The translations under genes and the position numbers were made by a program. A stretch of DNA of 64,000 nt. Origin: Candidatus Poribacteria bacterium. GTDB lineage: Bacteria; Poribacteria; WGA-4E; GCA-2687025. Shown in pieces: positions 4,288 to 60,201 of the stretch (position 1 is its first letter; each line of letters opens with the position of its first letter). The stretch covers positions 14,086 through 78,085 of the forward strand of contig VGLH01000002.1 in NCBI GenBank assembly GCA_016866785.1, given 5' to 3'. The notes under the pieces are model-generated. The model ran no database searches. It had not been told where the DNA came from and was given only the letters and a program-made list of their open reading frames with translations.

Positions 4288-4311
4288 CACACGCGCTCGA
4301 GGAAGGACACG

Positions 4312-6078
4312 ATGGATTCCCCTCGACTTCGTGGTTCCGACGGACCCCTCCGGTTCAGCGCCTACGTACCCGCCGAGAACGTGACGCGGCTCTTGTCAAG
4401 CGCCGAGGGACTGGACGAGGCGATCCGGCTGTGGCGCGCCAATGGCGTCACGAAGGTGTACCTCGACTGCCTTCGCGGCGGGCATTTCCCCGGCGAGCAA
4501 GTGCTCAGCACCGCGCGCGACACGATCCGACAAGCTGGGATCGGCGTCGCCGCAGGCATCACGCCGACTGCTGGCACGGGCAAGGCGTCGACGCACGGAC
4601 GCTGGTGGCTGTGCTACACGAATCGGTCCACTCAACGAGAGTTGGCGGACATCGTCACGCGGACAGCGCGTCTGTTCGATGAGCTCATCGTCGACGACTT
4701 CCTCTGCACTCAGTGCCAGTGTGACGAGTGCCGGGATGCGCGTGGCACGTCAACGTGGGTCGATTACTACGCATCGCTCATGCGTCATATCGCCGCTGAG
4801 TGCATCTTGGGTCCTGCGCGAGCCGTCAATCCGGATATCCACGTCGTCATCAAGTACCCGCAGTGGTACGACCGGTTCCACGCCTTCGGATACGATGTGA
4901 CGAGCCATCCGAGCCGCTTCGACGAGGTCTGGGTCGGAACCGAGATCCGCGATACACTGGTCGAGTATGTGCATCCGTACCAAGCCTTCGCCAACTACTC
5001 TTGGCTCGCGTCGCTGTCCGGGGAACGCATCGGCGGCGCGTGGTTCGACTTCATCAACTGCTACCCGGAGCGCTACGTCGAGCAGGCAGTGCAGAGCGTC
5101 CTCGCTGGAGCCCGCGAGTGCATCCGGTTCCACTACGATCCTGCGCTCTGGGACCCCGCCGTCGAGAACACAGCAGCGCTGTTGAGGGAGACCCTTCGCC
5201 TCGCCCGGCTCGCCGACGCACTGGGATCGCGCCGGGCGCAAGGCGTCACGTTCGTCAAGCCGACGGGCTCCGATGGCAGGGACGAGACCTACCTGCCGGA
5301 CTATCTCGGCATGCTGGGGTTGCCACTCGTGATGGCGCACGAGTTCCCGGTCGAGGCAGATGCCGTCTGCCTCGCCGTCCACGCAGCCGGCGACGCGGAT
5401 CTCTCCGAGCGGGCTCTCGCGTTCGCTCGCAGCGGCGGAACGCTCCTGCTGACGCCGGGCTACGTCGAAGCGATGGCGCACGACACGCATGTCCTCGAAG
5501 CGGCGGGACTTGCGAGCCCGCCCGTCGCTCGGAGCGACTCGTGGACGTTCCGGTTCGCCGTCGGCGGCGCACGAGCCGATGGCGAGGCGCACGTCCGGTT
5601 CAGCGCGCGTCCGGTTCCGGCAGGAGCGAACACGCTCGCATCGGCGATCTGCGCCAACGGTTCCTTCCCGGTGCTCACATCGCGTGCATATGGGCAGGGC
5701 ACGGTGCACGTGCTGAACACGACGACCTTCCAGTACGCCGAGGGATCGGGACGCGTGACGACGGGCGAGCCCGTGTCGCTCCCCCATCTGCCGCAGGCAG
5801 TCGTCGACGCGATCCGGACTGCGGCTCTCCCCAAAGCGCCGGTCAGCGTGTCGGTTCGCTCTCAGGTTGGCGTCTACCGATTCGGCGACCTGTTCGTGCT
5901 GTGCAACTTCAACGATCAGGCTGTGTCGGCGGTTCTGTCCAGCGCGACAGCAACGGATGGACCCATCGTCGATCCGACCAGCGGCGAGCGAGTCGCGAGC
6001 TGGCAGGACGGCGAGACGACAGTGCGCATACCGAGACGCGACTACGTCGTACTTCGGGTTGGTGAAGGAGCCATGTGA
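4312..6078 (+). CDS. hypothetical protein (588 aa), first gene of a translationally coupled five-gene cluster
   Basis: Long ORF with uniform GC-rich coding composition and no motif I can name. Its stop overlaps the next start (ATGTGATG at 6072-6080). Confidence 0.55.
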   Translation: MDSPRLRGSDGPLRFSAYVPAENVTRLLSSAEGLDEAIRLWRANGVTKVYLDCLRGGHFPGEQVLSTARDTIRQAGIGVAAGITPTAGTGKASTHGRWWLCYTNRSTQRELADIVTRTARLFDELIVDDFLCTQCQCDECRDARGTSTWVDYYASLMRHIAAECILGPARAVNPDIHVVIKYPQWYDRFHAFGYDVTSHPSRFDEVWVGTEIRDTLVEYVHPYQAFANYSWLASLSGERIGGAWFDFINCYPERYVEQAVQSVLAGARECIRFHYDPALWDPAVENTAALLRETLRLARLADALGSRRAQGVTFVKPTGSDGRDETYLPDYLGMLGLPLVMAHEFPVEADAVCLAVHAAGDADLSERALAFARSGGTLLLTPGYVEAMAHDTHVLEAAGLASPPVARSDSWTFRFAVGGARADGEAHVRFSARPVPAGANTLASAICANGSFPVLTSRAYGQGTVHVLNTTTFQYAEGSGRVTTGEPVSLPHLPQAVVDAIRTAALPKAPVSVSVRSQVGVYRFGDLFVLCNFNDQAVSAVLSSATATDGPIVDPTSGERVASWQDGETTVRIPRRDYVVLRVGEGAM

Positions 6079-7076
6079 TGCTGCGGATCGCCATCACGGG
6101 CGCGGGCTCGATGGGAAGGGCTCACGCGCGATCCATCGGAACCTACGGGGCCCGCGTCGGCGCCGTCCATGATGTCAACGCCGAAGCAGCCAGCGCGCTT
6201 GCCAACGAGTGCGGCGCGGAAGCGGCTACGACCCATCTCGATGAGCTCTTCACGGGGGAGCCCGACGGGTTGGTGGTCGCGACGCCGCCGGCGTCACGTA
6301 TCGAGCCGATCCGGCTGGCTTGCGAGCATGGCGTCGCATTGATGATCGAGAAGCCACCGGCGCTCACGATGCGCGATGGGCTCGCCTGCCAGCGCCTGGT
6401 CCGCGACGCAGGCGTGCTGGCGGCTGTCGGGCTGCAGCTTCGTTACCATCCGCTCTACGAACGGCTGCGCGAAATGCTCGCCGGTCAGACCATCCACCTG
6501 GCGCGGACGGTGTGCACCGTCGACTACTACCTCAGCTTCCGCATGAACCCATGGTTCCTGCAGATCGAGCACAGCGGCGGGCCCCTGCCGGAGCAGGCGG
6601 GGCACATACTCGACGCCCTGCGTTACGTCCTTGGCGACCCGAAGCCGATACGCGCCCACGCCTTCGCCGTCAAGAACATGGCGCACGACCGTGCCGAGTT
6701 CGACTCGGAGAACGCCATCCAGGTCTCCTACGAGCTCGACAACGGCGTCTTCGGGACGCACATGAACCACTGCGGGACCGAGCGATTCGCCTTCGACCTG
6801 GAGGTCACGGGTCCGCATCTGCGGCTCCAAGCCAACATCACCGAGGGTCGGATCAAGGGCTACCTGCACGGCAAGGACGTTGACGAACCAGCTCCGGCGC
6901 AGAGCTCGCTCGGGCTGGACAAGACGGCGGCGTGGCTGCGTGCCATCGAGACGGGCGATACGTCGCTTGTGCGCTCCCCGTTCGACGATGCGTTGCAGAC
7001 GCTCGCGCTCATCGACGCAGCCGTGCGCTCCCGCAACTCGGGGGTGTTCGCCGATGTGAAGGGCTCCGATGGCTAG
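6075..7076 (+). CDS. Gfo/Idh/MocA family NAD(P)-dependent oxidoreductase
   Basis: N-terminal Rossmann motif IAITGAGSMGRAHA. Typical ~330 aa length. EKP motif (LMIEKPPA). Confidence 0.85.
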   Translation: MMLRIAITGAGSMGRAHARSIGTYGARVGAVHDVNAEAASALANECGAEAATTHLDELFTGEPDGLVVATPPASRIEPIRLACEHGVALMIEKPPALTMRDGLACQRLVRDAGVLAAVGLQLRYHPLYERLREMLAGQTIHLARTVCTVDYYLSFRMNPWFLQIEHSGGPLPEQAGHILDALRYVLGDPKPIRAHAFAVKNMAHDRAEFDSENAIQVSYELDNGVFGTHMNHCGTERFAFDLEVTGPHLRLQANITEGRIKGYLHGKDVDEPAPAQSSLGLDKTAAWLRAIETGDTSLVRSPFDDALQTLALIDAAVRSRNSGVFADVKGSDG

Positions 7077-7836
7077 GGCTCGCGTGCTCATCACGGGCGG
7101 TTCCGGCTATCTTGCGGGCTCCATCGCATCGCGCCTGCGGCAATCCTGCGATCTCACGCTGATGGATCGTGTGGAACCGCCCGCCGACCGCTCCGACCTG
7201 CCGTTCAGTCGCGGGGACATCACGTCGTTCGATGACGTGCGTGCCGCCTGTCGTGATCAGGATGCTGTCGTGCACACGGTCGCGCTCGTCCGCGAGCGTT
7301 TCGGCAAGCCGCATGGGCTCTTCGCCGATGTCATGGTGAAGGGCACCTGGAACGTCGCCGAAGCGTGCGCTCAGCAGGGCGTGAGACGCATCGTCCACAT
7401 ATCGAGTGTCATCGCGTCCGGCACTCCGGCGCGTTCCGACCATCCGTACGCTGTTGGCGATCCGTGCGTCTACGCGCCCGGCGATCTTTTCTACTGCCTC
7501 GCCAAGCGACTCGCAGAGCAGGTCTTGGACGCGAGCGCACAGGCACACGGCTTTCGTGTGATCCACCTGAGACCCGGCATCATCGCCGGAGACGGGCTGA
7601 ACCGCGAGCCTGCCAAGCCCGCAGGAGACCCGCGCTATTGGTTCATGCATGTCGATCCGCGAGATGTTGCGCAGGCGGTCGAGCTGGCGCTGGTATCAGA
7701 CCTGACGTCGGGCTGCTACCACATCGTGGCAGGACGCGCCGACAGCCGGTACGAGTGGGAGAGCGCGACCCGTGATCTGGGCTACACTCCTGAGCACAAC
7801 TGGAAGCACATCCCCGTCAGTGAGGTGAACCCATGA
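7069..7836 (+). CDS. NAD-dependent epimerase/dehydratase family protein
   Basis: N-terminal VLITGGSGYLAG Rossmann motif. Start overlaps the previous stop. Confidence 0.8.
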   Translation: MARARVLITGGSGYLAGSIASRLRQSCDLTLMDRVEPPADRSDLPFSRGDITSFDDVRAACRDQDAVVHTVALVRERFGKPHGLFADVMVKGTWNVAEACAQQGVRRIVHISSVIASGTPARSDHPYAVGDPCVYAPGDLFYCLAKRLAEQVLDASAQAHGFRVIHLRPGIIAGDGLNREPAKPAGDPRYWFMHVDPRDVAQAVELALVSDLTSGCYHIVAGRADSRYEWESATRDLGYTPEHNWKHIPVSEVNP

Positions 7837-8528
7837 CCGTCAAGGGCCAGCACGTCGTCGTCACGGGTGCTAGCCGTGGTCTGGGCAGAGCGGTTGCCGA
7901 AGCGTTCCTCGCCGCCGGAGCACGCGTCTGCGGAACCGGTCGCGACCCGGAAGCGCTCGAGGAGACGCGCTCGCGGCTCGAAGCCATCGGCGGCGACTTC
8001 GAGCTCGTGACCCTCGACGTCCGTCACGAGGAATCCGTCTGCGACCTGATGCAGCGGTTGGATCGACTCGATATCGTCGTCAACAACGCCGGCATTGCTC
8101 GCATCAAGCCGCTGCTCGATACGGCAACAGAGGAGCTGTGCCAGACATTTTCCGTCAACGTCGTGGGCGCGTTCGTCGTCATGCGCGAGGCGGCGCGTCG
8201 CATGGTGGCGTCGGGCGGCGGACTAATCGTCAACATCGCGTCCGACGCGGCGATCCGGGGCATCCCACGGATGGCTCCTTACGTCGCGAGCAAACACGCG
8301 CTGCTGGGCATGGGACGCTCCGCGAGCCTCGAACTGCGCGGATCCGGGGTGCGCGTCACCACATTCTGCCCGGGGCCCATCGCCACCGACATCTTGGGGC
8401 CCGGAACCGCGAGCCCAAACGCGATGACCTGCAAGTCGCTCGCAGAACTGATCGTCAGCATCGCATCGCTGCCGCCCAACGCAGAGCTGCAGGAACTCCT
8501 GATCCAGCCGTCGCCCGTCGTCTCCTAG
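7833..8528 (+). CDS. SDR family oxidoreductase (short-chain dehydrogenase)
   Basis: TGASRGLGRAVA cofactor motif. NNAG motif. YVASKHAL catalytic YxxxK. Confidence 0.85.
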   Translation: MTVKGQHVVVTGASRGLGRAVAEAFLAAGARVCGTGRDPEALEETRSRLEAIGGDFELVTLDVRHEESVCDLMQRLDRLDIVVNNAGIARIKPLLDTATEELCQTFSVNVVGAFVVMREAARRMVASGGGLIVNIASDAAIRGIPRMAPYVASKHALLGMGRSASLELRGSGVRVTTFCPGPIATDILGPGTASPNAMTCKSLAELIVSIASLPPNAELQELLIQPSPVVS

Positions 8529-8554
8529 CCGAACACAGATGGGAGGGTCCGCCC

Positions 8555-9559
8555 ATGTCGGTTCCGCGTCTCTCGAACGATGCCATCGGTTGGCTGGCGC
8601 GTCGCGTCGCTGAAGCCTCCGCGAAGTTGCCGCGTGAGTTCGCGGACGTCGCGTCCTGGGAGGGCTGGCGCGACGACATGCGCGCTCGGCTCCGTTCCCG
8701 TATCGGCGTCCCGTATCTCGAACCGACGGAGGAAGCTGTCATTCGCAGCGACACGGTGATCGCCTCTCATGCTCGGCTTGAGCGCGTCGATATCCCCGCC
8801 GACGCCGACTACGCGATCCCTGCCTTCGTCGTGAAGCCGGCAGAACCGAAGGCAGACGGCGGACCTGGCATCGTGCTGTGCCCCGGATGGCCCCAGACGA
8901 AGTGGGAGCCGCAGTTCATGCGGTTCGGCGAACGGATGGCGAGGCACGGGTTCGTGACGGCGATTCTCGATCACGCGCCCTTCGGCGAGACGAGCCACAA
9001 CACGATGCCCGGCGCGATGACCCACGTCATGGGCATCGGGAACCTGCTGGGCATCAGTCAGCTCGCGCTCCGAGCCGCCGAGGCGATGTGCGTCGGCGAG
9101 TACCTGCGGATGCGCGACGACGTGCGGTCGGATCGGGTAGCAATTACAGGCCTGTGCCAGGGCGGGATGACGACGTGGATGGCAGGCGGGCTCGACAACC
9201 GCTTCGCCGCCGTCGCTCCGGTCGCGTCGGGAACCACGTTCACGGCGTGGGCAGTCGAGATGAGCCGCTACCGGGCGCTCGGAGACGTGTCGCCCTATCC
9301 GTTCGGGCTCATCGAGGTGTGCGACACGGAGCACCTGCACGCGGCCGTCGCGCCGAGGCCCCTGCTCGTTCAGGCGAACACGCCGGACGACTGGTGGCCC
9401 CTCAGCGGGTTCCAGCAGATCGAATCGTTCTCGCGGCAGGTGTACGAGCTCTACGGGGCGGAGGAACGCTGCGAGTTCGTCGGCGAGATGCACGAGCACG
9501 CGATCACGGGGCCCTTCGCCGACCGACTCGAAGCGTTCCTCCTCAAGCACCTGGGCTAG
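8555..9559 (+). CDS. dienelactone hydrolase family alpha/beta hydrolase
   Basis: Start chosen at the internal ATG preceded by GGGAGGG; the upstream part of the tracked ORF overlaps the SDR gene. Nucleophile elbow GLCQGG with Cys, typical of dienelactone hydrolases. Confidence 0.7.
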   Translation: MSVPRLSNDAIGWLARRVAEASAKLPREFADVASWEGWRDDMRARLRSRIGVPYLEPTEEAVIRSDTVIASHARLERVDIPADADYAIPAFVVKPAEPKADGGPGIVLCPGWPQTKWEPQFMRFGERMARHGFVTAILDHAPFGETSHNTMPGAMTHVMGIGNLLGISQLALRAAEAMCVGEYLRMRDDVRSDRVAITGLCQGGMTTWMAGGLDNRFAAVAPVASGTTFTAWAVEMSRYRALGDVSPYPFGLIEVCDTEHLHAAVAPRPLLVQANTPDDWWPLSGFQQIESFSRQVYELYGAEERCEFVGEMHEHAITGPFADRLEAFLLKHLG

Positions 9560-10431
9560 AGCAGCGCCCGCAGGTAGTCCACGGACGCCTTCGTCGCCGC
9601 CGAGTATTCCTCGTCGGTCAGAACGCCGCCACCGTGGTCTTGGATGAACTTGAGCTGCGACGCGGGACCCTCCGCCGAGTCGTCGGCGCGTGTCCCAGCG
9701 AGAATCGTCCGTTCGACGGGGTTGACGAACTCGACCGTGAGGTGCCCTTCGTAGCCGACCGACTTGAGCGTGTCCACGATGTCCCTCCAGTTCACGTGCC
9801 CCAGACCCGGAGGCTTCCGGTTGCTGTCGGCGACGTGAAAGTCGAGGAGGCGCTTGCCCAGAGAGCGGATCGTCGCCAGCGAATCCTCTTCCTCGATGTT
9901 CATGTGGAAGGCGTCGACGCAGATGCCGATGTCCTCCCCGATGGCGTCCGCGAGGGCGACCGCCTGCTCGCCACGGTTGATGAAGTAGGTCTCGAACCGG
10001 TTGATCGGCTCGATGGCGATCTGGACACCGAGCTTGCGGGCGACGTCGGCGACACGCTTCATGCCATCGACCGCCCACTCCCATTCCTGCTCGATGGAGG
10101 CGTCCGGAGCCGTCTTTCCGACCGTCGCCGGCACGGTCGTCATGATCTGACCGCCCAGACCGGCGACCATGCGGATACAGTCCTGCAGGTAGAGGATCGT
10201 TCCCTCGCGGAGGTACTTGTCAGCGAGTGTGAGTCCCCGTCCTTCCGTCATGATCGAAACGGAACCTCGGCACGTGATCCCGTGCTTTTCGAGGGTCTTG
10301 CGCGTCTCGTCGATGGGGTACAGCTCCGGTTCGCCGCTGATCTCGATGGCGTCGTAGCCGAAGCGCGCCAACCGCTCGACGGTCTGTTCGAGCGGCTCGG
10401 GTCGCATCCAGTTGTGCATCCCGATCTTCAT
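9556..10431 (-). CDS. sugar phosphate isomerase/epimerase (xylose isomerase-like TIM barrel)
   Basis: MKIGMHNW... N-terminus and xylose-isomerase-like TIM signature (FGYDAIEISGE). Start chosen at the internal ATG 10431 with an upstream GGAGGAG; the longer R-rich extension was rejected. Confidence 0.8.
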   Translation of the reverse strand: MKIGMHNWMRPEPLEQTVERLARFGYDAIEISGEPELYPIDETRKTLEKHGITCRGSVSIMTEGRGLTLADKYLREGTILYLQDCIRMVAGLGGQIMTTVPATVGKTAPDASIEQEWEWAVDGMKRVADVARKLGVQIAIEPINRFETYFINRGEQAVALADAIGEDIGICVDAFHMNIEEEDSLATIRSLGKRLLDFHVADSNRKPPGLGHVNWRDIVDTLKSVGYEGHLTVEFVNPVERTILAGTRADDSAEGPASQLKFIQDHGGGVLTDEEYSAATKASVDYLRALL

Positions 10432-10466
10432 GGTCGTCTCCTCCGTGTCGTCGGGTCTCGGACGAG

Positions 10467-11345
10467 CTAGAAGGCGCGGTCGACGAACTCGCGGTCGTGG
10501 ACGTTGACGGGCACCTTCGTCAGCTCCTGAACGCCTCGGGCGACGTGCTCCGCCAGCCGACGAAAAGCCTCTTCGCCCTTCTCCGCCGTCGCCCTCAGCG
10601 GATTCCCGATGACGCCGCTCTCGATGAACTCGTGGTGATCCATCGGGAACGTGAAATACTTGTAGCCCTCGAACTCGACGTCGGGCATACCGTCCTTCTT
10701 CTCGAAGCTCTTGGGGAGGTATTCGGGGATGTGCGCCTTCGTGAACTCCGCGCGCTCCATGCGCACGAACTCCTGGCTCCAGGCGAGGTCTTGGGACGTC
10801 TCCAACTCGCTGGCGTGCCAGCCGGGCGTCTCCTCGGGCGGGTTCTCCATGAGTCCCTTGAGGATGCCGACGTAGTTCTCCATGTAGGGCTTCACAAAGG
10901 CGATCAACGCGCCGGTTTCGTAGCGCAGCTTGCGCAGGATAGGATCGACGATCTTCACATTGGAGCCGTGTCCGTTGATGAAGATGATCCGGTTGAACCC
11001 ATGGTGGATGAGGCTCCGCGCGACGTCGTACATAAGGTTCAGCAGCGTCGTGCTGCGAACCGTGATCGTGCCTCGCCCCTCGCCCGGACGGTGCATGTGC
11101 TGGGGCGAATAGCCCATCCAGATGGGCGGCGTGTGCAGCACGGCGATCTGGCTGCAGACCCGTCGCGATATCTCGACGGCGGTCAGCGTGTCCGTCCACA
11201 GCGGCAGATGGGGCCCGTGCTGCTCCAGACTCGCCATCGGAACCAGCACCGTGTCCTTGTGCTGGAGGTACTCCTTGATGTCCGTGATCGTCAGCTCAGC
11301 CAGATTCCACGATCGGAACTTAGCTCGGAACTCCGCATCGCTCAC
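10467..11345 (-). CDS. creatininase family amidohydrolase
   Basis: ASLEQHGPHLPLWTD motif typical of the creatininase/ArfB/MftE family. ~290 aa. Start overlaps the upstream gene stop (ATGA at 11342-11345). Confidence 0.8.
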   Translation of the reverse strand: MSDAEFRAKFRSWNLAELTITDIKEYLQHKDTVLVPMASLEQHGPHLPLWTDTLTAVEISRRVCSQIAVLHTPPIWMGYSPQHMHRPGEGRGTITVRSTTLLNLMYDVARSLIHHGFNRIIFINGHGSNVKIVDPILRKLRYETGALIAFVKPYMENYVGILKGLMENPPEETPGWHASELETSQDLAWSQEFVRMERAEFTKAHIPEYLPKSFEKKDGMPDVEFEGYKYFTFPMDHHEFIESGVIGNPLRATAEKGEEAFRRLAEHVARGVQELTKVPVNVHDREFVDRAF

Positions 11346-12571
11346 GCGCGATCCTCCTTCGCCATGACGTTCAGGAACACATCCGCCACCTCCAGTCCGA
11401 ACGCCGTCTCGTTCACATGGCGGTCGAACATCATCACCGGGATGTCACTTCGCAGGTCGGCTCGCAACGCGGCAAGGAAGGCAGCGTCCGCGTCGGGATT
11501 CCAGAACGGACCCGTCGGCGTGTTCGGGATCGACAGTCCGCGTGTCGGAACCGCGATGACGACCGATCCCTTCGCAGGATTGAGCCTCTCGGCGAACAGG
11601 TGACCCAACTGGATCATCTCGTCGTGCGATGTGCGCACGAGTGTGTACTCAGGATTGTGGTCGTAGACCGGGCGGTCTCGCAACGGCTCGGGGACCGTCC
11701 CGGCGTTGAAGACGCTGAAGTCGATGCAACCGGGAACGATCACCTGCGGGAGCCCGACGGCTCCGACGCGCTTCAGGCGGTCCGGTCCGCCGTCGTGGAT
11801 GCCCCCGACCATCGGGTCGTAGACCTCGTTCGTCGTGAAGTCGATGACACCGACGAACTGCCCCGCCTCGGCGAGCTCCTCCATGGCGGGCCCGCCGACG
11901 CCGTTCGAGTGGAAGATGACCGCCTCGTACCCGTGTTCCGCGAGACGCGTCTTCAGCGACATGACTGCCGTCGTCGTGTTCCCAAGCATCGTGACGGCGA
12001 CGTACTTGCCCTCGGGCTCGGGCAGCTCGTGGCCATGCGCGAGCATCCCGGCTATCGCCGCCGCGACATTGTCGAAGACCGTGCAGGCGACGGGATTCAG
12101 CCCGAGGATGTCCACGATCGAGTGGACCGTCATGATATCGCGCGTGCCGACCAACGGCGCGAAGTAGTGCTTCCCCGACGCGATGGGCGAGACGAGCACC
12201 TTCGGCACGCCGACTGGCAGCACCATCATCGCCGCAGCGCCCATGACGGCTCCCTCGGCGCCGCCCATGCTCACCATCGCATGGCACTTCCCTTGTCGGT
12301 ATAGCTCAAGGGACAGCGTCCGAAGCGCCTCGCGCATCCCGTGGACGGCACGGCCCCGGCTCCCTGCGTTCCGAAGCTGCTCGATCGTGAAGCCGCCGTA
12401 CGTCGCGGCTTCCGCGCGGGAGATGTCCGGCTCGATGCCCAACGGCTCGCCCAGGATACCCGAATCCACGACGATGGGAGACAGCCCCAGCGACCGTAGG
12501 CGATCCCGGAGATAGGCGATCTCGGGGCCCTTCGTATCGAGTGTCCCGATGACAACGACGCTCTTGCTCAT
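11342..12571 (-). CDS. UPF0261 (Tm-1-like N-terminal domain) family protein
   Basis: N-terminus MSKSVVVIGTLDTKGPEIAYLRDRL...IVVDSGILGEP matches the UPF0261 signature. Start at internal ATG 12571; the 40-aa R-rich extension was rejected. Confidence 0.8.
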   Translation of the reverse strand: MSKSVVVIGTLDTKGPEIAYLRDRLRSLGLSPIVVDSGILGEPLGIEPDISRAEAATYGGFTIEQLRNAGSRGRAVHGMREALRTLSLELYRQGKCHAMVSMGGAEGAVMGAAAMMVLPVGVPKVLVSPIASGKHYFAPLVGTRDIMTVHSIVDILGLNPVACTVFDNVAAAIAGMLAHGHELPEPEGKYVAVTMLGNTTTAVMSLKTRLAEHGYEAVIFHSNGVGGPAMEELAEAGQFVGVIDFTTNEVYDPMVGGIHDGGPDRLKRVGAVGLPQVIVPGCIDFSVFNAGTVPEPLRDRPVYDHNPEYTLVRTSHDEMIQLGHLFAERLNPAKGSVVIAVPTRGLSIPNTPTGPFWNPDADAAFLAALRADLRSDIPVMMFDRHVNETAFGLEVADVFLNVMAKEDRA

Positions 12572-12594
12572 GCGTTGCGTCTCCTCGATTGCCG

Positions 12595-13692
12595 TCAGGC
12601 GACGTTCGCGGCGAGCAGCTCGTAGAGCCCCTGCACGCGCACGCCGAACTTCGGGGCGTGCTTGGCAAGCTGCGCCAGTGTGCCGGAGCACTCGGTCACG
12701 ACCGTCTCCGCCCCGACGTTCTTGGCGTCATCGAGACGCGAGTACGTCAGGTGGTTCGATATCTTCGGCTGCGTGAACTGCAACGCCGTGTTGCCCGACG
12801 GGTGCGCACGCTCTCGCCGCCAGAAGAGCTCGACCGGCGGACCCCCGACGACCGTACCCAAGAGCCGACGCGGGGCTTCGTGACGCGATGCGACTCGGAC
12901 AGCGTGCGTCGGATCGACATAGGCGCACTTGCCCAAACCGTCCGCCGCGCGGAGCCGCAACCGACCCGACTCCGCCGCCCCAGACAGGAACGACACGACC
13001 TCGATCACCTCGACGCCGTCAGGCAGAGCCAGCCCGAGCCGTTCGTCGTAGAGCCGCGCGAAGGCGTCGTAGTCGCCAGCCGAGAGGACGAACAGCCGCC
13101 GCGCTCCCGTTGCAGCGAGCTCCGCCAGGTTCGCCTCTGCGATGCTCTTTGCCGTTTCGTAGAGTCCGAGCGACGCCGGCAAGTAACCGCTGTTCCGCCC
13201 AACACCGATCAGGGCTGGCTTTACGCCTGCGCGTTCGAGGAGGCTGAGTGCGGCGTCGAGCGCCGAGCTCCAGGCGTGTTTCGCGTCGTCCCCCACGAAC
13301 AGGGCGTCCGCCGCCTTCGCGACGGGGTCCGAGGACGATGGTTCGCCATACGGGTTCCCGAACTGGCGAAGCCTCGCGTCCAGGTCAGCGACGACGTCAG
13401 GCATCAGACCTGCCGAGATCACCGACTGCCTTGCCAGTGCGATGGCGTCTGGCAGCGCCTGATCCGTCACGCAGTTGGCGCGGCATGTGCCGCAGTCGGC
13501 ACAAGCGTAGAGGACATCGACCGTCTTCTCGTCCCACGCGATCAGTCCGCGCTCGACCGACGCGATGAGCAGACCCCAGCCGTGGGGCGTGAGCGACTCG
13601 CGCCGCGTCACGTGCCCGACTGGGCAGACGTGCCGGCACATGAGGCAATAGCGGCAGTTGTCGCTGATCGGAGTGGAGTCGATGATCTGCAT
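12595..13692 (-). CDS. (Fe-S)-binding protein, GlcF/GlpC-like (two 4Fe-4S motifs plus CCG domains)
   Basis: CRYCLMCRHVCP and CADCGTCRANC ferredoxin motifs at the N-terminus. Cys-rich CCG-type C-terminal half. Confidence 0.8.
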   Translation of the reverse strand: MQIIDSTPISDNCRYCLMCRHVCPVGHVTRRESLTPHGWGLLIASVERGLIAWDEKTVDVLYACADCGTCRANCVTDQALPDAIALARQSVISAGLMPDVVADLDARLRQFGNPYGEPSSSDPVAKAADALFVGDDAKHAWSSALDAALSLLERAGVKPALIGVGRNSGYLPASLGLYETAKSIAEANLAELAATGARRLFVLSAGDYDAFARLYDERLGLALPDGVEVIEVVSFLSGAAESGRLRLRAADGLGKCAYVDPTHAVRVASRHEAPRRLLGTVVGGPPVELFWRRERAHPSGNTALQFTQPKISNHLTYSRLDDAKNVGAETVVTECSGTLAQLAKHAPKFGVRVQGLYELLAANVA

Positions 13693-13701
13693 GGCGGTCT
13701 C

Positions 13702-15138
13702 CTAAGCTCCGAAGCCGATCTTGCCGGGGTTCATGATGCCGTTGGGGTCGATCGCCTTCTTGAGGCTGACGAGCAGGTCCCACGCGGGCCCGTACTGCAT
13801 CCGCGCGAAGCGGCCGAGCTTCAGTCCAACCCCGTGGTGGTCATTGATCATCCCGCCGTGCTCGAAAGACGCCCGCACTGCCGTGGTCCAGACGCGGTTG
13901 TGGAGGGTGAGCGCCTCTTCGGCGTCCTCGGGCGGCTCCTCGATGATGAACCGGTCGTAGAGGCTGACACCCCAGTGGTACCAGTGCGAGAAGTGTCCGA
14001 TGTACTGGACGCCATGGTCGGCGTAGGTCTCCTCGACTGCGCGCTTCTTCGCCCAGTAAAGCGCCTCGATCTTGTCATAGGTCGTGACCGTCTCCGTCGT
14101 GCCGTACATCCACGGAAGCTTGAGGCTCTTGGGCGGGTAGTAGAAGTCGTAGCGATGGTTCCACCAGCGCTCGCCGGGCTCCCTGCCCAGGTCGCGTGCG
14201 CCGAGCTCGTCGAAGATCGCCATCGCCTTCCGTTCCTGGAGCGCGGCGATGTCCGGGTCGCCGTCGAACCCGACGACCATGTAGGAGCCCTCGAGCTCGT
14301 AGCCGAGCACGCGCTTCACCTGCGACGCCGTCGAATGTGCGTCGTAGAGCCGAATGACGAACGGATCGAGCCGCCGCGTCATCAGCCGTCGTCCCGCTTC
14401 GAGAGCCTTCGACAGGTCCTCGAACAAGAGCGCTCGGAGATACCGCGCCTCCGGGATATGATCCACCTGAACCGTCGCCTCGGTGATGATGCCCATCGTG
14501 CCCTCAGCCCCGAGGAAGATGCGTCCGAAGTCGGGACCGGACGAGTGGTTGGGGACAGCCGGCGTGCGGATGATCGTCCCGTTGGGGAGAACGACTTGCA
14601 TCGTCATGACGAGGTCTTCAGCTTTTCCGTACTTCGTGCTGATCGTACCGGTTCCTCGCGCGGCGAGAAAGCCAGCGAGCGTCGCGCAGTTGGAGGATGC
14701 GGGATAGTGAGGGAAGGTCAAGCCCTTCTCGTTGAGCGCCCACTCGAGCTGCTCGTTGATGATCCCCGCCTGCGCTGTGGCTTTGAGCGACTTCTCGTCG
14801 ATCTCGATGATCTTACTGAGCCGCTTGGTATCGACGACGATGCCTCCGTGCGTCGCCAACGCTCCGCCCTGCGTTCCCGATCCGCCGCCGTAGGGTACGA
14901 CGGGAATCCGGTACCCGTTGGCGATCTTCATGATGTCCGCGATCTCTTCCGGAGACCCCGGATGCACGATGACGTCCGGCTTCGACAGCGGCTGGCCCCT
15001 GTCGAGCCACATCTGCGCCATCCACGACCAGTCGGTCGAGTAGACGAGCCGATCCGTCTCGTCCGTCGAGACGAACGCCTCGCCGACAACGTCCTCGAGC
15101 TCGCTCCGGACCATCTGCCCGAATATGCCCAACGCCAT
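13702..15138 (-). CDS. FAD-binding oxidase (GlcD / D-lactate dehydrogenase-like)
   Basis: FAD_binding_4-type segment (VIVHPGSPEEIADIMKIANGYRIPVVPYGGGSGTQGG). Start at internal ATG 15138. Tight junction (9 nt) with the Fe-S partner. Confidence 0.85.
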   Translation of the reverse strand: MALGIFGQMVRSELEDVVGEAFVSTDETDRLVYSTDWSWMAQMWLDRGQPLSKPDVIVHPGSPEEIADIMKIANGYRIPVVPYGGGSGTQGGALATHGGIVVDTKRLSKIIEIDEKSLKATAQAGIINEQLEWALNEKGLTFPHYPASSNCATLAGFLAARGTGTISTKYGKAEDLVMTMQVVLPNGTIIRTPAVPNHSSGPDFGRIFLGAEGTMGIITEATVQVDHIPEARYLRALLFEDLSKALEAGRRLMTRRLDPFVIRLYDAHSTASQVKRVLGYELEGSYMVVGFDGDPDIAALQERKAMAIFDELGARDLGREPGERWWNHRYDFYYPPKSLKLPWMYGTTETVTTYDKIEALYWAKKRAVEETYADHGVQYIGHFSHWYHWGVSLYDRFIIEEPPEDAEEALTLHNRVWTTAVRASFEHGGMINDHHGVGLKLGRFARMQYGPAWDLLVSLKKAIDPNGIMNPGKIGFGA

Positions 15139-15218
15139 TGCTGCCCCCGATGTGACGGATTGCCTCTTCCCAATGCCCGACGTGCCGTGGATTGATGCCT
15201 TCCGCGCCTGTGTGCTAA

Positions 15219-15240
15219 GGTCGTGTCCCGCGACACGACC
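15219..15240. promoter_or_regulatory. perfect 9-4-9 palindrome (GGTCGTGTC-ccgc-GACACGACC) in divergent promoter region
   Basis: Read directly from the sequence. It sits 25 nt upstream of the esterase ATG (15265) and ~80 nt upstream of the GlcD-like operon start (15138) on the other strand. Confidence 0.5.
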
Positions 15241-15264
15241 CGCGCGCTCCGAGGAGTCCCACTC

Positions 15265-17733
15265 ATGCGTTGCCCGGCGTCGCTCATGTGCCTGCTGGCA
15301 GCAGTCGTCCTCTCGCCTTCGGCGTTGTCGCCAGTGTGTGCCGAACCGATCGTGCCGACAAGCTGTCTGATGATCGCTCGCGTCGCCCGGACCGGGCGAA
15401 CGCCTCTTCACACAGACTTCGTCGAGGCTCAGATTATCCGCGACGCCCCGCCGCCGCAAGAGGGAGACGCCATCGCCTTGGCAGACGGCGAGAGCGCCGT
15501 CTGGGAGCGGTCCGAGCTCGACGCCGACGGGAACTTCTCGGGCTCGTTCCGAGGCGGATACGCCTATGTCGCCGTGGACGTGCCGGATGCGCGTGTGATG
15601 ATCCTCGAAGCGTCAGGCACGCGGGAGGTCACGGTCAACGGAGAACCACGCGTTGGCGATCTCTATGGCACAGGGATCGTTCGGCTTCCCGTCCGTCTCC
15701 GCTCAGGCAGGAACGACCTCTATTTCGCCGCCGGGCGAGGCCGGCTGCGCGTCCGACTCGTCGAGCCCGACGCTCCGTCGATGATCCAGGCGCCCGACAT
15801 GACCCTTCCCGACCTCATTGCCGGCGAAGCCTCCGACATGTGGAGCGCTGCCGTGGTCGTCAACGCCTCATCGGCTGCGCTCACTGGCGCGCGGATCGCC
15901 GCCCAGATCGGCAACTCAGTTGTCGAGACGGACACACCGGCGATCGCGCCGCTCAGCATGCGCAAGGTCGAGTTCCGCATCGCGGCAGAGCCGATCGCTG
16001 ACCACACCGAAGTCCCGCTCCGGCTGACGCTCCTGAGCGCGTCCAGAGCCGCCCTTCACGAGCAGACGACGACCCTTCGCGTCCGCACCTCGACGCAGAC
16101 GCGAAAGGTGACGTTCGTCAGCGGTATCGACGGGAGCGTCCAGTACTACGCGGTGAATCCCTCCTACGGTGAGTCCGGCTCCCGTCCGGCGCTTGTACTG
16201 ACGCTCCACGGCGCGGGCGTCGAAGCCATCGGTCAGGCGGACGCCTACTCGCCGAAGTCGTGGGCGCACATCGTCGCGCCGACGAACCGTCGCCCCTACG
16301 GTTTCGATTGGGAGGATTGGGGCAGGATCGACGCCATCGAGGTGCTCGACTTGGCACAGTCATCGCTGCGCACCGATCCGTCGCGGACGTACTTGACGGG
16401 ACACTCCATGGGCGGGCACGGCACGTGGCAGGTGGGAGGTACGGTTCCGTCGCGCTTCGCCGCCATCGGGCCCAGCGCTGGGTGGATCAGTTTCCGCACG
16501 TACAGCGGCCGGCGCGAACCGGACTCGCCCAGCTACTTCGGCGACGGGCTCCTGACGCGTGCTGCGGCATCGAGCGACACGCTGGCGCTCGTGCCGAACT
16601 ACGAGCACTACGGCGTCTACGTCCTCCACGGCGACGCCGACGACAACGTGCCGGTCGAGCAGGCGCGACAGATGCGCGAGCAGCTCGAGCCGTTCCACAA
16701 GGACTTCCAGTACTTCGAGCAGCCGGGCGCGGGGCACTGGTGGGACGCGTCGGACGAGCCGGGCGCCGACTGTGTGGACTGGGCACCGATGTTCGATTTC
16801 TTCGCCCGCCACGCCGTGCCTTCTGACCGGGCAACACGACGCGTCCGGTTCATCACTGCGAATCCGTCGGCGTCTGCCGACTCTCACTGGCTTCGCATCG
16901 AGGCGCAACAGCGGGCGCTAGTACCGAGCTCGGCAGATGTGACCATGGACCCACACCGACGCCGGTTCCGTGGAACCACGGAAAACGTCGAGAGGCTGTC
17001 GCTCGACGCGTCGGTACTGACCGACGGAGAGATCGTCGTCGAGCTCGACGGTTCGCACCTCACGGTTCCAGCGCCAACGAACGGTCGGCTGGTCCTGGCA
17101 CGTACGCCCGATGGCTGGACTCATGCGCCGGCTGCCGATAGCTGGTCGAAGGGCCCAGTGCGCGGTGGGCTCTTCAAGGCAGCCTTCACCAACCGGTTCG
17201 TGTTCGTCGTCGGGACGCGCGGCTCGGAAGCCGAGACGACTTGGGCTCGGGCGAAGGCTCGGTACGACTCCGAACAGTGGTGGTATCGCGGAAACGGTTC
17301 TGTCGAAATCATCGACGACGCGGCTTTCTCGCCGTCGGAGTACACAGACCGGAGCGTCATTCTCTACGGGAACGCCGACACGAACGCCGCGTGGAGCGTC
17401 CTGCTTCCCGACTGCCCGGTACGTGTGACACGGGGATCGGTCGCCATCGGCGACAGGGCGGTCCAGGGGGATGACCTGGCGTGCCTATTCGTCTATCCAC
17501 GAGCTGACAGCGACACGGCAAGCGTCGGTGTCGTCAGCGGAACCGGCATCGTGGGCTCGCGCCTCACAGACCGCCTGCCCTACTTCCTCTCCGGCGTTGG
17601 GTACGCCGATGTGACCGTGATGGGTTCGGAGACGCTGACGGAACCGACGGCAGGCGTCCGGGTCACCGGCTTCTTCGGCAACGACTGGAGCGTCGAACGC
17701 GGCGAGTTCGTCTGGCGCGACGCCGCTCCGTGA
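15265..17733 (+). CDS. secreted alpha/beta-hydrolase fold esterase (large multidomain)
   Basis: Start at the ATG preceded by GAGGAG. Signal peptide MRCPASLMCLLAAVVLSPSALSPVCA. Central esterase core with nucleophile elbow GHSMGG and LHGDADDNVP. Confidence 0.7.
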   Translation: MRCPASLMCLLAAVVLSPSALSPVCAEPIVPTSCLMIARVARTGRTPLHTDFVEAQIIRDAPPPQEGDAIALADGESAVWERSELDADGNFSGSFRGGYAYVAVDVPDARVMILEASGTREVTVNGEPRVGDLYGTGIVRLPVRLRSGRNDLYFAAGRGRLRVRLVEPDAPSMIQAPDMTLPDLIAGEASDMWSAAVVVNASSAALTGARIAAQIGNSVVETDTPAIAPLSMRKVEFRIAAEPIADHTEVPLRLTLLSASRAALHEQTTTLRVRTSTQTRKVTFVSGIDGSVQYYAVNPSYGESGSRPALVLTLHGAGVEAIGQADAYSPKSWAHIVAPTNRRPYGFDWEDWGRIDAIEVLDLAQSSLRTDPSRTYLTGHSMGGHGTWQVGGTVPSRFAAIGPSAGWISFRTYSGRREPDSPSYFGDGLLTRAAASSDTLALVPNYEHYGVYVLHGDADDNVPVEQARQMREQLEPFHKDFQYFEQPGAGHWWDASDEPGADCVDWAPMFDFFARHAVPSDRATRRVRFITANPSASADSHWLRIEAQQRALVPSSADVTMDPHRRRFRGTTENVERLSLDASVLTDGEIVVELDGSHLTVPAPTNGRLVLARTPDGWTHAPAADSWSKGPVRGGLFKAAFTNRFVFVVGTRGSEAETTWARAKARYDSEQWWYRGNGSVEIIDDAAFSPSEYTDRSVILYGNADTNAAWSVLLPDCPVRVTRGSVAIGDRAVQGDDLACLFVYPRADSDTASVGVVSGTGIVGSRLTDRLPYFLSGVGYADVTVMGSETLTEPTAGVRVTGFFGNDWSVERGEFVWRDAAP

Positions 17734-56926: not shown

Positions 56927-57762
56927 GCGAGGTCGTTGAGGGCAGCCGCCAGCCCGTCTTCGTCGTTTCCGCCGGTGATGCGAAACCCCAGACGATGGAG
57001 CTCAGGAGCCGCGTTCCCCATCAGGACGCCATGGCCGGCGTACCGGAGCATGTCAAGATCGTTCAGATTGTCTCCGACCGCCATAATCTCGTCGGCTGTC
57101 AGCCCGCGCTCGGCTGCGATCTGCTGGAGCGGCAGAGCCTTCGTCACGTCGTGATGGGCGATCCCGATATACCCGATGCGCCCGCCGTGTGCCGGAATGA
57201 CGCTCACGCGCGAACCGAGCCGTTCGGCAACCGCGCCAGCGAGCTCGCCCGTACGCGCCTTCGGAGCCGTGAGCATGACCTCCAGCGCGTTGCCGGAGAA
57301 TCCGGTCAGGTCATCGACAAGGGTGACGTAGGCGGCGTTCCGCTGAACGTAATCGCGGAAGTAGGGCGCCAGACTCTCATCCGCGCGCTCAGGAGCCATG
57401 CAGAAGATGCGCGTGAACGGATCTCCGGAGTCGTCTTGGAAGGCGAGCGGATAGGCGTCGAGCTCGTCGGCGAGCCGTCCGGCGGCGTGGATGATGTCTT
57501 CAGACACGCGGCGCGCGTAGAGGTAAGAACCGTCGCGGCGACGCAGAGCGGCTCCGTTGTGGAGCCCGTACAGGGCTGGCACGTAAAGGTCGCCCGCGAC
57601 CGCCATCGCGGACTCGAAGCGCCTGCCCGACACAATGGCGATCTCAATGCCCAGTCGGTGCGCGCGGTCCAGGGCTCGGTGTGTCGCATCGGTGATGCGC
57701 CCCGACGGATCAAGGAGCGTCCCGTCGATGTCGATGCCGACGAGCCGCACTCCGCGCGTCAC
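56923..57762 (-). CDS. Cof-type HAD-IIB family hydrolase
   Basis: GIDIDGTLL motif I. GDNLNDLDML motif. ~280 aa. Confidence 0.8.
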   Translation of the reverse strand: MTRGVRLVGIDIDGTLLDPSGRITDATHRALDRAHRLGIEIAIVSGRRFESAMAVAGDLYVPALYGLHNGAALRRRDGSYLYARRVSEDIIHAAGRLADELDAYPLAFQDDSGDPFTRIFCMAPERADESLAPYFRDYVQRNAAYVTLVDDLTGFSGNALEVMLTAPKARTGELAGAVAERLGSRVSVIPAHGGRIGYIGIAHHDVTKALPLQQIAAERGLTADEIMAVGDNLNDLDMLRYAGHGVLMGNAAPELHRLGFRITGGNDEDGLAAALNDLA

Positions 57763-59312: not shown

Positions 59313-59402
59313 AGTGCCGCCCTTTCGTGACGATGGGTCCCTGAAGTGACGCCATTGTGCCGCGCGGATGCGTGTCCGGCAACGGGATCGACGGGCAGCG
59401 GC

Positions 59403-60089: not shown

Positions 60090-60201
60090 TCGTTAGCCTC
60101 CCAAAGCTCGCTGAATACCTGACGCTCAATCGGCTAGCCCGAAGCACGAGCCAGCGGTAGAATGCCGCGCGTAGCTGATCGCGTCACCGAGGAACCGCAC
60201 C

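Follow-up and report, generated by a model that had tools for sequence, protein, structure and literature searches.

The window analyzed here, a 64,000-nucleotide stretch of contig VGLH01000002.1 (positions 14,086 to 78,085; assembly GCA_016866785.1, Candidatus Poribacteria bacterium), carries a block of five minus-strand genes at positions 9556-15138. The genes, designated A to E, encode a flavoprotein, an iron-sulfur (Fe-S) protein, a UPF0261 protein, a creatininase-fold hydrolase and a TIM barrel. The genes of the block and the features that bound it are as follows.

Gene A, 13702-15138, minus strand, 478 amino acids (aa): oxidase linked to flavin adenine dinucleotide (FAD), of the GlcD/D-lactate dehydrogenase/alkyl-dihydroxyacetone-phosphate synthase (AGPS) clade, with an AGPS-like active site.
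Gene B, 12595-13692, minus strand, 365 aa: Fe-S protein with an N-terminal two-[4Fe-4S] ferredoxin module and a C-terminal CCG fold without the CCG cysteines.
Gene C, 11342-12571, minus strand, 409 aa: UPF0261 (Tm-1-like) protein, predicted ATP-dependent kinase.
Gene D, 10467-11345, minus strand, 292 aa: creatininase-fold binuclear-metal hydrolase, proposed to open a ring or hydrolyze a C-C bond.
Gene E, 9556-10431, minus strand, 291 aa: xylose-isomerase-like TIM barrel of the ketose 3-epimerase/IolO type.
Divergent intergenic region 5' of gene A, 15139-15222, 84 nt: presumed promoter/operator, from its position only.
Divergent S9/esterase-like gene, 15223-17733, plus strand: bounds the block upstream.
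Convergent alpha/beta hydrolase gene, 8555-9559, plus strand: bounds the block downstream.

An earlier note, made from the letters of this DNA, had described five minus-strand genes with tight junctions. The coordinates were confirmed, as were the gaps of 9 nt (A/B), 23 nt (B/C) and 35 nt (D/E). The 4-nt overlap between C and D, given there as ATGA, reads GTGA, the GTG start of D lying over the TGA stop of C. Pfam searches confirmed all five families that had been named (FAD-linked oxidase, Fe-S, UPF0261, Creatininase and AP_endonuc_2), and a GGAG-type ribosome-binding sequence precedes every start of the five genes. Promoter and terminator scans detected neither a sigma-70-like promoter nor an intrinsic terminator inside the block, and independent gene calls on four near-identical metagenome contigs gave the same five genes. 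Because the upstream gene is divergent and the downstream gene convergent, the five genes make up the entire unit. The 84-nt region at 15139-15222 contained no sigma-70 consensus match and no Rfam family, and an Rfam scan of the entire window found nothing. The G+C content is 63-67% throughout the window, and that of the block is unremarkable. The common strand, the short or overlapping junctions, the lack of an internal terminator and the conserved collinearity described below indicate that the block is one operon, with a single predicted transcript.

Conservation of the operon was examined by a species-level genome scan (one genome each) with alignment of C orthologues, which gave 214 relatives; the best 80 loci were kept, and gene order was counted in the 60 of these with enough flanking sequence. 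Taxon labels are those of the records, and nearly all loci are from metagenome-assembled genomes. The order A-B-E-C-D was found in 51 of the 60 informative loci. Five loci had A-B-C-D with E on the opposite strand, two had A-B-C-D, one had B-C-D and one had C alone. All five genes were present and collinear in 56/60 loci and the A-B-C-D core was present in 58/60, indicating an arrangement far beyond chance; the random juxtaposition that the earlier note had named as a refuting outcome is thus not what the loci show. The order in the window, A-B-C-D-E, is a local variant, the position of E varying among loci. The sole locus with ample flanks in which a C orthologue (75% identical) occurred without A, B, D and E was L050:10001-11227.

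The best 80 loci belong to Chloroflexota (the majority), Rhodothermales, Salinivenus, Balneolaceae, Poribacteria, Zixibacteria, Trueperaceae and Longimicrobiales, the last two being represented by incomplete contigs with only parts of the module; the 60 informative loci cover Chloroflexota, Rhodothermales with their relatives, Poribacteria and Zixibacteria. Orthologues of all five proteins were co-located in Herpetosiphonaceae, Anaerolineales and Zixibacteria contigs, and the gene content of the module is kept in at least seven bacterial phyla. Clustering of all open reading frames (ORFs) at the loci showed that only the A to E families are common across phyla; the other neighbors are lineage specific. 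The isolate Kallotenue papyrolyticum has the order A-B-E-C-D, with identities to the window proteins of 59% (A), 46% (B), 49% (E), 59% (C) and 66% (D). This copy lies at about 275.4-281.2 kb of JAGA01000001 (GCA_000526415.1), and after it come a glyoxalase-like gene, a CUT1 ATP-binding cassette (ABC) transporter, two further xylose-isomerase-like barrels, a GntR regulator and a GFO/IDH/MocA gene. No published description of the cluster came up in full-text searches of the literature, in agreement with the earlier remark that the combination was not recognized as a known pathway.

The five proteins are not conserved to the same degree. Median identities to the window proteins were 72% for A, 52% for B, 75% for C, 79% for D and 50% for E, with orthologue ranges of 58-76% (A), 39-59% (B), 69-79% (C, across phyla), 61-83% (D) and 45-57% (E). 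Constraint is thus far tighter on A, C and D than on their operon partners B and E. That B and E are only about 50% identical within the same operon argues, tentatively, for differential constraint over one recent horizontal transfer of A, C and D. The high conservation of A, C and D (medians of 72-79%), together with the persistence of C and D in three gene contexts (see below), fits a tightly interacting complex.

Gene C matched both Pfam domains of its family (UPF0261 N-terminal, PF06792, 161 bits; UPF0261_C, PF23189, 225 bits; cut-off, 27) and passed the NCBIfam model NF002674 (407.7 bits; cut-off, 335). Its PDB matches were tomato Tm-1 (197 bits) and MarK (9MPY, 196 bits over the full length). 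UPF0261 had been described in the earlier note as having no biochemical role in bacteria. MarK (Saro_1862) of Novosphingobium aromaticivorans is, in contrast, a UPF0261 ATP-dependent kinase that acts on phenolic hydroxyls and forms ADP; its crystal structure is 9MPY, and it was the first UPF0261 protein with a demonstrated activity, in 2025 (PMC12624787). The decisive ATP-site Lys of MarK (E16K) corresponds to Lys20 of Tm-1 (PMC12624787). In C, the ATP-site residues D12-T13-K14 and H221 were invariant in 17 orthologues and relatives, and H221, F285 and H305, the equivalents of MarK His219, Phe283 and His304, were conserved. C therefore shares with MarK the two-domain architecture, the Asp-Thr-Lys motif and the equivalents of the acceptor-contacting residues His219 and His304. 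The pocket differs, in that MarK Thr196 is replaced by N198 and His348 by P349 (N350 adjoining), and these replacements are conserved across the orthologues. The partners differ as well, MarK acting with a biotin carboxylase and a phosphatase in the context of lignin aromatics, and C standing with a hydrolase, a flavoprotein and an epimerase in a carbohydrate context. We read C as a predicted kinase with an acceptor other than that of MarK.

The demonstrated activity of MarK raises a MarK-type catabolism of phenolic or aromatic compounds, in which C would phosphorylate a phenol, a flavoprotein like vanillyl-alcohol oxidase (VAO) or p-cresol methylhydroxylase (PCMH) would oxidize the side chain, and D would hydrolyze the ring-fission product. 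Phosphorylation of phenolic hydroxyls is the sole demonstrated UPF0261 activity, and the FAD domain of A distantly matches PCMH and VAO. That similarity is limited to the FAD domain, however (E ~1e-17, versus 6e-55 for AGPS), and the ketone-binding His348 and the Thr196 of MarK are the very residues replaced in C. The locus lacks the biotin carboxylase and the phosphatase that belong to the acetovanillone pathway, ORF clustering of the loci revealed no ring-cleavage dioxygenase conserved nearby, and the neighbors are sugar genes. We consider this route the least likely of the alternatives and would be surprised if it proved correct.

Gene D matched Pfam Creatininase (PF02633) with 201.6 bits but fell below the cut-offs of three subfamilies: creatininase (TIGR04448, 117.9 bits; cut-off, 235), MftE (106 bits; cut-off, 172) and IolN (NF041098, 99.3 bits; cut-off, 245). 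Its structure model (mean pLDDT confidence, 88) superimposed on creatininase structures with template modeling (TM) scores of 0.7-0.8 (Foldseek, 0.72/0.80 to 1Q3K). The fold and all five ligands of the binuclear metal site (E41, H43, D52, H126 and E182, in the pattern Glu-His-Asp-His-Glu) are those of creatininase (PDB 1J2T and 1Q3K) and are conserved. In contrast, D is only 24-25% identical to creatininase and lacks its substrate-binding and catalytic residues Tyr121, Glu122 and Trp154; the motif NGHYEN reads NGHGSN, and the Trp154 region is not conserved. The D clade has an invariant set of its own, comprising GYSPQH, PEETPGWH and many Arg and Lys residues. It is small (82 of 1.84 billion representatives at E <= 1e-30; 1,072 proteins for the wider clade at the same threshold), and no C-D gene fusion was evident among 150 D-family representatives. 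By these scores D is equidistant from IolN, MftE and creatininase, of which IolN alone acts on a carbohydrate. Ring opening, which had been suggested for the cluster from the outset, or cleavage remains our best guess for the reaction of D.

Gene A matched the Pfam domains FAD_binding_4 (136 bits) and FAD-oxidase_C (95 bits) and scored below every NCBIfam equivalog cut-off, including that of GlcD (179.3 bits; cut-off, 567.9). Its best PDB relatives were the AGPS of Dictyostelium (190 bits) and guinea pig (146 bits), followed by D-lactate dehydrogenase (D-LDH; 134 bits) and glycolate oxidase (129 bits). The catalytic positions of AGPS were located in the alignment by means of the mutant entries 4BC7 and 4BCA. 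R263, Y394 and H434-H435 of A align with AGPS Arg419, Tyr578 and His616-His617, and they were invariant in 14 orthologues and also in A', a distant relative of A described below. Where D-LDH has the GEHG metal site for 2-hydroxy acids, A has (D/E)HHG. A thus resembles alkyl-dihydroxyacetone-phosphate synthase more than GlcD. The likeness to AGPS/ADPS (PDB 2UUU and 4BBY), its best solved relative, comprises a full-length alignment and shared catalytic residues. The alignments start only at residues 127 (of 584) and 178 (of 658) of AGPS, indicating that the N-terminal extension of AGPS (~100-170 residues) is missing from A. A also differs from AGPS, a stand-alone, redox-neutral enzyme, in being always followed by the Fe-S protein B, and there is no lipid-metabolism context around it.

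Gene B matched Pfam Fer4_8. The cysteines at positions 13, 16, 19, 23, 64, 67, 70 and 74 form two CxxCxxCxxxC motifs typical of two [4Fe-4S] clusters; beyond residue 74 there was no conserved Cys, C256 occurring in 2 and C335 in 1 of 15 sequences. The AlphaFold model of B (pLDDT, 88) matched best EtfD of Mycobacterium smegmatis (9ojn; TMq, 0.77; E, 3.7e-13), then LutA and HdrB. The label of CCG subunit given to B in the earlier note holds for the fold, seen in the model and in precomputed PF02754 (CCG) matches of many orthologues, but not for the CCG cysteines, which are missing, nor for the Pfam CCG domain, which the window copy did not match. B is accordingly modeled as a ferredoxin-plus-CCG fold from which the CCG cluster ligands are gone. 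In the orthologues of the Rhodothermales/Bacteroidota loci L053, L055, L056, L070 and L071, 3-4 of the 8 ferredoxin cysteines are lost, leaving at most one [4Fe-4S] cluster, and the gene still stands between A and C.

A divergent copy of the module in Mahellales (Bacillota) has a DeoR/GlpR-type regulator followed by A-B-D-C and then fumarate-reductase-like genes. Its B homologue is TfrB-like, with a scoring CCG domain and a GlpC match of 75 bits. The genes after the module (L096:12475-14600) encode a TfrA-like fumarate-reductase flavoprotein and a separate 131-aa SdhB-type [2Fe-2S] protein. The fold of B and these TfrA- and SdhB-like neighbors support the view that A passes electrons onward. 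The coupling of A to an Fe-S/CCG-fold partner, together with the fumarate-reductase-like genes in an anaerobe, implies a net oxidation and not a redox-neutral acyl or alkyl exchange. The Mahellales B homologue resembles the C-terminal two-thirds of TfrB, and the set may represent a split thiol:fumarate-reductase-like electron sink.

A and B had been described as GlcD/GlcF-like. As in GlcDEF and two-subunit D-lactate dehydrogenases, an FAD_binding_4 flavoprotein is followed immediately 3' by a ferredoxin/CCG-fold protein. The resemblance ends there: A (179 versus 568 bits) and B (15.6 versus 333 bits for GlcF) are far under the cut-offs, GlcE is in neither the operon nor the conserved module, the CCG cysteines are gone from B, and the GEHG metal site of D-LDH is replaced in A by AGPS-type residues. 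These differences, with those of D from creatininase, bear on the route first proposed for the cluster, a glycolate or D-lactate oxidase combined with hydrolysis of a creatinine-like lactam or other nitrogen heterocycle; by analogy with 5-oxoprolinase, the UPF0261-creatininase pair might then be an ATP-dependent lactamase. The creatininase fold and metal site of D and the low-level GlcD match of A are in its favor, amide activation by a paired kinase and hydrolase is conceivable in principle, and the lactate racemase LarA (508 bits; cut-off, 460) neighbors the module in about 30 Chloroflexota loci. D, however, reaches only 118 of the 235 bits of the creatininase model and has none of the residues that bind creatinine, and A and B widely fail the GlcD and GlcF cut-offs, with no GlcE and no D-LDH-type metal site in A. 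Nor is a creatinase, sarcosine oxidase, urease, amino-acid or nucleobase gene conserved near the module, whose contexts are those of carbohydrates and not of nitrogen heterocycles. We regard this route as very unlikely.

Gene E matched Pfam AP_endonuc_2 (140.1 bits). Its best NCBIfam models were IolO 5-keto-L-gluconate epimerase (NF041099, 148.9 bits; cut-off, 300) and D-psicose 3-epimerase (137.4 bits; cut-off, 300), with weaker matches to hydroxypyruvate isomerase (76 bits) and 2-oxo-tetronate isomerase (55 bits). Models of phosphate-sugar epimerases scored 23 and 18 bits. The best PDB match was Thermotoga TM_0416 (IolO), and the conserved metal/catalytic tetrad (Glu-Asp-His-Glu; E141, D173, H199 and E234) aligned with motifs of TM_0416 and the Clostridium cellulolyticum epimerase. 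E is a ketose-3-epimerase-type barrel, closest to IolO.

More distant relatives show in which company C and D occur. A sister clade (D' 50-51% and C' 43% identical) has the gene order A'-C'-D'-IolM in two loci, L090 and L094. Its zinc alcohol dehydrogenase (Zn-ADH) passed the cut-off for IolM, scyllo-inosose 3-dehydrogenase, at both (549 and 540 bits; cut-off, 450), and D' scored 98 bits against IolN. The surroundings include a CUT2 sugar transporter, a GFO/IDH/MocA gene, two mycofactocin-coupled short-chain dehydrogenases/reductases (SDRs) and mftABCD. An IolM gene was adjacent in the sister clade only, being absent from the window and the 80 orthologous loci. A D relative of 48% identity lies in an operon with UPF0261, a DegT-family aminotransferase, a histidinol-dehydrogenase-like gene and a major facilitator superfamily (MFS) transporter; one of 45% lies beside a DeoC aldolase and a 388-aa Zn-ADH; and one of 41% has no UPF0261 nearby. 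The pairing of C and D outlasts the orthologous group, the UPF0261/creatininase pair being found in three different gene contexts.

At L094:5361-16434, the A'-C'-D'-IolM genes lie between two mycofactocin-coupled SDRs and mftA-mftB-mftC-mftD. None of the genes called at this locus scored as an MftE peptidase; its sole creatininase-family gene is D', and protein P0121, 91% identical to this D', scored 90 bits against the MftE cut-off of 172. The operon with the aminotransferase (L091:595-8201) contains, in order, a creatininase-like gene, a DegT aminotransferase, a histidinol-dehydrogenase-like gene, a hypothetical gene, a metallo-beta-lactamase, UPF0261 and an MFS transporter; the set is reminiscent of aminocyclitol or amino-sugar metabolism.

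Frequent neighbors of the module itself were GFO/IDH/MocA (IolG-like) dehydrogenases and IolE-like barrels, and CUT1/CUT2 sugar ABC transporters adjoin it in Zixibacteria, Rhodothermales, Kallotenue and the IolM variant. The sugar transporters and the IolG- and IolE-like neighbors point to a carbohydrate substrate. The DeoR-type regulator, the invariant Arg and Lys residues of the D clade and the AGPS-type site of A point to an anionic or phosphorylated intermediate. In 19 of the 80 loci, all Chloroflexota, and in Kallotenue, a second UPF0261 gene with a PEP_hydrolase-like TIM barrel stands beside the module (e.g., L005:1-1446 and L095:2832-4948), this UPF0261 paralogue being ~40% identical to C. 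The usual UPF0261/PEP_hydrolase pair thus coexists with the module, and the idea that the creatininase and xylose-isomerase-like enzymes had replaced the PEP-hydrolase partner is not sustained. A TauE/SafE-family (TSUP) anion permease lies directly 3' of D in 27 Chloroflexota loci (e.g., L012:12213-13052), a position suggestive of a substrate or product that is anionic and may be sulfonated or carboxylated. Several Chloroflexota accessory genes were considered as core members and rejected, since they are confined to that phylum plus one Zixibacteria locus: the levoglucosan-dehydrogenase-like GFO, XylA, a XylA-like barrel, XylB, LarA and the TauE permease, and likewise PfkB, DeoC-ferredoxin, aldehyde:ferredoxin oxidoreductase and the second UPF0261/PEP_hydrolase pair.

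One alternative explanation is a polyol- or ketose-phosphate route like the erythritol pathway EryA-EryB-EryC of Brucella. C would phosphorylate a small polyol or ketose, A and B would act as a glycerol-3-phosphate-type dehydrogenase giving a ketose phosphate, E would epimerize this product, and D would perform an accessory hydrolysis of a lactone, cyclic ester or diketo-phosphate. A shares its catalytic residues with an enzyme that binds a dihydroxyacetone-phosphate moiety, the N terminus of B weakly matches GlpC (75 bits in the Mahellales homologue), the Mahellales regulator is of the DeoR/GlpR type, and XylA and XylB are neighbors in Chloroflexota. The AP_endonuc_2 enzymes EryC, UlaE and SgbU, moreover, epimerize tetrulose and pentulose phosphates. 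Such a scheme has no natural place for D, although D is better conserved than any other member of the module (median, 79%) and co-varies with C in three different contexts; nor does it explain the IolM neighbor of the sister clade. The matches of E, furthermore, are far stronger to epimerases of free ketoses and keto-acids (149 and 137 bits) than to those of phosphate sugars (23 and 18 bits). We consider an erythritol-type route unlikely, at perhaps the level of a serious outside candidate.

The weaker isomerase matches of E and the Chloroflexota neighbors bear on another explanation, an acid-sugar route like the tetronate (LtnD/DenD-OtnI-OtnK-OtnC) or 2-ketogluconate (kguE-kguK) pathways. Here A and B would oxidize an aldonate or an acid derived from a lactone at its 2-hydroxyl, E would isomerize or epimerize the keto-acid product, C would phosphorylate it, and D would cleave a beta-dicarbonyl or open a lactone. 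By overall homology A belongs to the D-2-hydroxy-acid dehydrogenase clade, E gives its weaker matches to the hydroxypyruvate and 2-oxo-tetronate isomerases (76 and 55 bits), the D clade has many invariant basic residues, and a LarA-type 2-hydroxy-acid racemase and a TauE-family anion permease are often neighbors in Chloroflexota. The Otn pathways, reportedly described by Zhang et al. in PNAS in 2016, are said to follow a similar logic of dehydrogenase, TIM-barrel isomerase, unusual kinase and C-C cleavage. A lacks, however, the His-His-Glu metal site that binds the 2-hydroxy acid in D-LDH and has AGPS residues instead; ORF clustering of the loci found no decarboxylase or aldolase conserved with the module; and LarA and TauE are confined to Chloroflexota. 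An acid-sugar route is, in our estimate, improbable, and somewhat more so than the erythritol type.

Both the Ery and the Otn pathways resemble the module in combining a kinase, a flavoprotein or other dehydrogenase and an AP_endonuc_2 isomerase or epimerase, and in Otn an unusual kinase family is followed by C-C cleavage. They differ from it in their kinases (FGGY and DUF1537), dehydrogenases (GlpD-like and beta-hydroxyacid) and cleavage enzyme (class II aldolase fold). To our knowledge, neither pathway includes a creatininase-fold enzyme.

A closer counterpart is the oxidative inositol pathway of Thermotoga. The Thermotoga maritima operon TM0411-TM0416 encodes IolG, IolM, IolN, the kinase TM0415 and IolO (Rodionova et al. 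2013, as summarized in PMC5931981). IolM makes a diketo-inositol, IolN hydrolyzes it to 5-keto-L-gluconate and IolO epimerizes the product, the physiological acceptor of the TM0415 kinase being unsettled (PMC5931981). Both operons contain one or more dehydrogenases, a creatininase-family hydrolase, a kinase and an AP_endonuc_2 epimerase. D is in the Pfam family of IolN, the best family and structure for E are IolO and TM_0416, and the sister clade of the A-C-D trio adjoins a bona fide IolM. The systems differ in that the second dehydrogenase is here an FAD/Fe-S enzyme and in Thermotoga the NAD-dependent Zn-ADH IolM, and in that the kinase is here UPF0261 and in Thermotoga a ribokinase-family, pyrophosphate-dependent enzyme. 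Furthermore, D is always paired with a kinase, and an IolG orthologue is not in this operon. By curated criteria, the operon, which is real, conserved and undescribed, is a member of none of the Thermotoga Iol, GlcDF-type and MarK systems. The observation of the earlier note stands, and its interpretation stands in part.

From the homologies and neighborhoods above, we tentatively favor, with a little less than even confidence, a catabolic module for a carbohydrate-derived polyhydroxy ketone, most likely an inositol- or inosose-type cyclitol, operating as a phosphorylation-dependent variant of the Thermotoga pathway. In this variant, A would oxidize a hydroxyl next to a carbonyl or phosphate ester by means of its AGPS-like catalytic residues, and its electrons would pass to B and on to the respiratory chain, or, in the anaerobic relative, apparently to a fumarate-reductase-like enzyme. 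C would transfer phosphate from ATP to a hydroxyl or enol group, either of the substrate or of an intermediate. D would direct metal-activated water onto a carbonyl, so that the ring is opened or a C-C bond cleaved, as IolN does with 3-dehydro-scyllo-inosose. E would epimerize the resulting keto-acid or keto-sugar beside the carbonyl, leading into ordinary sugar-acid or pentose pathways. Compared with IolG-IolM-IolN-IolO of Thermotoga, an electron-transferring flavoprotein would thus stand in place of the NAD-dependent IolM, and a UPF0261 kinase would be obligatorily paired with the hydrolase. We infer the substrate, the order of these four steps and every catalytic activity from the observed gene content, its conservation, the family and fold assignments and the active-site residues.

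Several points weigh against an inositol-type pathway. The functional links all rest on homology or gene neighborhood. D (99/245) and E (149/300) are well under the IolN and IolO cut-offs, and creatininase and MftE are at least as near to D as IolN is. IolM and a clear IolG are missing from the window and from most loci; the nearby GFO protein of the window scores 86 versus 355 for IolG and is not a conserved neighbor. The clade linked to IolM is a sister group with 43-51% identity, and its substrate need not be the same. Since the IolN of Thermotoga needs no kinase partner, the analogy leaves the role of C unexplained. The AGPS-like residues of A fit a ketose phosphate or polyol phosphate as well as a cyclitol and suggest a ketone-phosphate substrate. 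The frequent Chloroflexota neighbors XylA, XylB, LarA and TauE-family permease point to pentoses, 2-hydroxy acids or organic anions. Finally, the loci counted for conservation lack phylogenetic independence, since Chloroflexota supply 61 of the 82 that were clustered. Because of these weaknesses, the erythritol-type and acid-sugar explanations are given substantial weight; the lactam and the aromatic routes fit the contexts and residues poorly.

Apart from the choice of substrate, C and D, probably with A, could constitute a new multi-enzyme system in which a cyclic di- or polyketone is phosphorylated at an enol or hydroxyl at the expense of ATP, in mechanistic coupling to hydrolytic C-C ring cleavage and to covalent flavin-N5 chemistry. 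We put this forward as a speculative and rather doubtful proposal. If it were true, it would represent a new strategy for opening carbocycles and a first clue to the ubiquitous UPF0261-plus-hydrolase pairs, including the Tm-1-like UPF0261/PEP-hydrolase fusion of plants.

The module is found in hundreds of genomes of abundant, poorly studied heterotrophs, among them Chloroflexota from sludge, soil and hot springs, Rhodothermales from saline waters and Poribacteria associated with sponges. It joins three families whose bacterial roles are largely blank, namely UPF0261, the bacterial AGPS-like flavoproteins and those creatininase-family members, the majority, that are not creatininases. Should the inositol-type assignment be true, the module would be a third route of cyclitol breakdown, and a recurrent "hypothetical" operon of metagenomes would be explained. 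Whatever the substrate, the obligate kinase-hydrolase pairing offers a handle on UPF0261 function, including that of the Tm-1-like proteins of plants. The presence of the module in the cultured isolate K. papyrolyticum makes it directly testable.

The flanking genes of the window (GH-like, GFO/IDH/MocA, NAD epimerase, SDR, alpha/beta hydrolase, S9 esterase, sulfatase and ArsP) were considered as pathway partners and rejected, as 0/80 loci repeat any of them. Two FGGY-family kinases lie around a glycerophosphodiester phosphodiesterase at 57759-61695, with a HAD hydrolase adjoining. The kinase at 57792-59312 is 51% identical to the XylB-like neighbor of Chloroflexota modules, but it lies 43 kb from the operon beside the phosphodiesterase and HAD genes and is probably unrelated. 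At 2-4287, 5-8 kb from the operon, are a multiheme cytochrome c gene and a gene for an FG-GAP/ASPIC-UnbV/TPR protein. A similar FG-GAP/ASPIC gene and a TPR gene directly follow the module in a Great Salt Lake Bacteroidetes locus (L070:6183-9471), which may be coincidence. A string of plus-strand genes at 4288-9559 converges on the operon and is kept only in near-identical poribacterial contigs. It encodes, in order, a protein with no Pfam match, a GFO/IDH/MocA protein, an NAD-epimerase-like protein, an SDR and an alpha/beta hydrolase with a faint glucuronoyl-esterase match; on the near-identical contigs, the first of these proteins has precomputed GH_cat and SSO3021_2nd matches.

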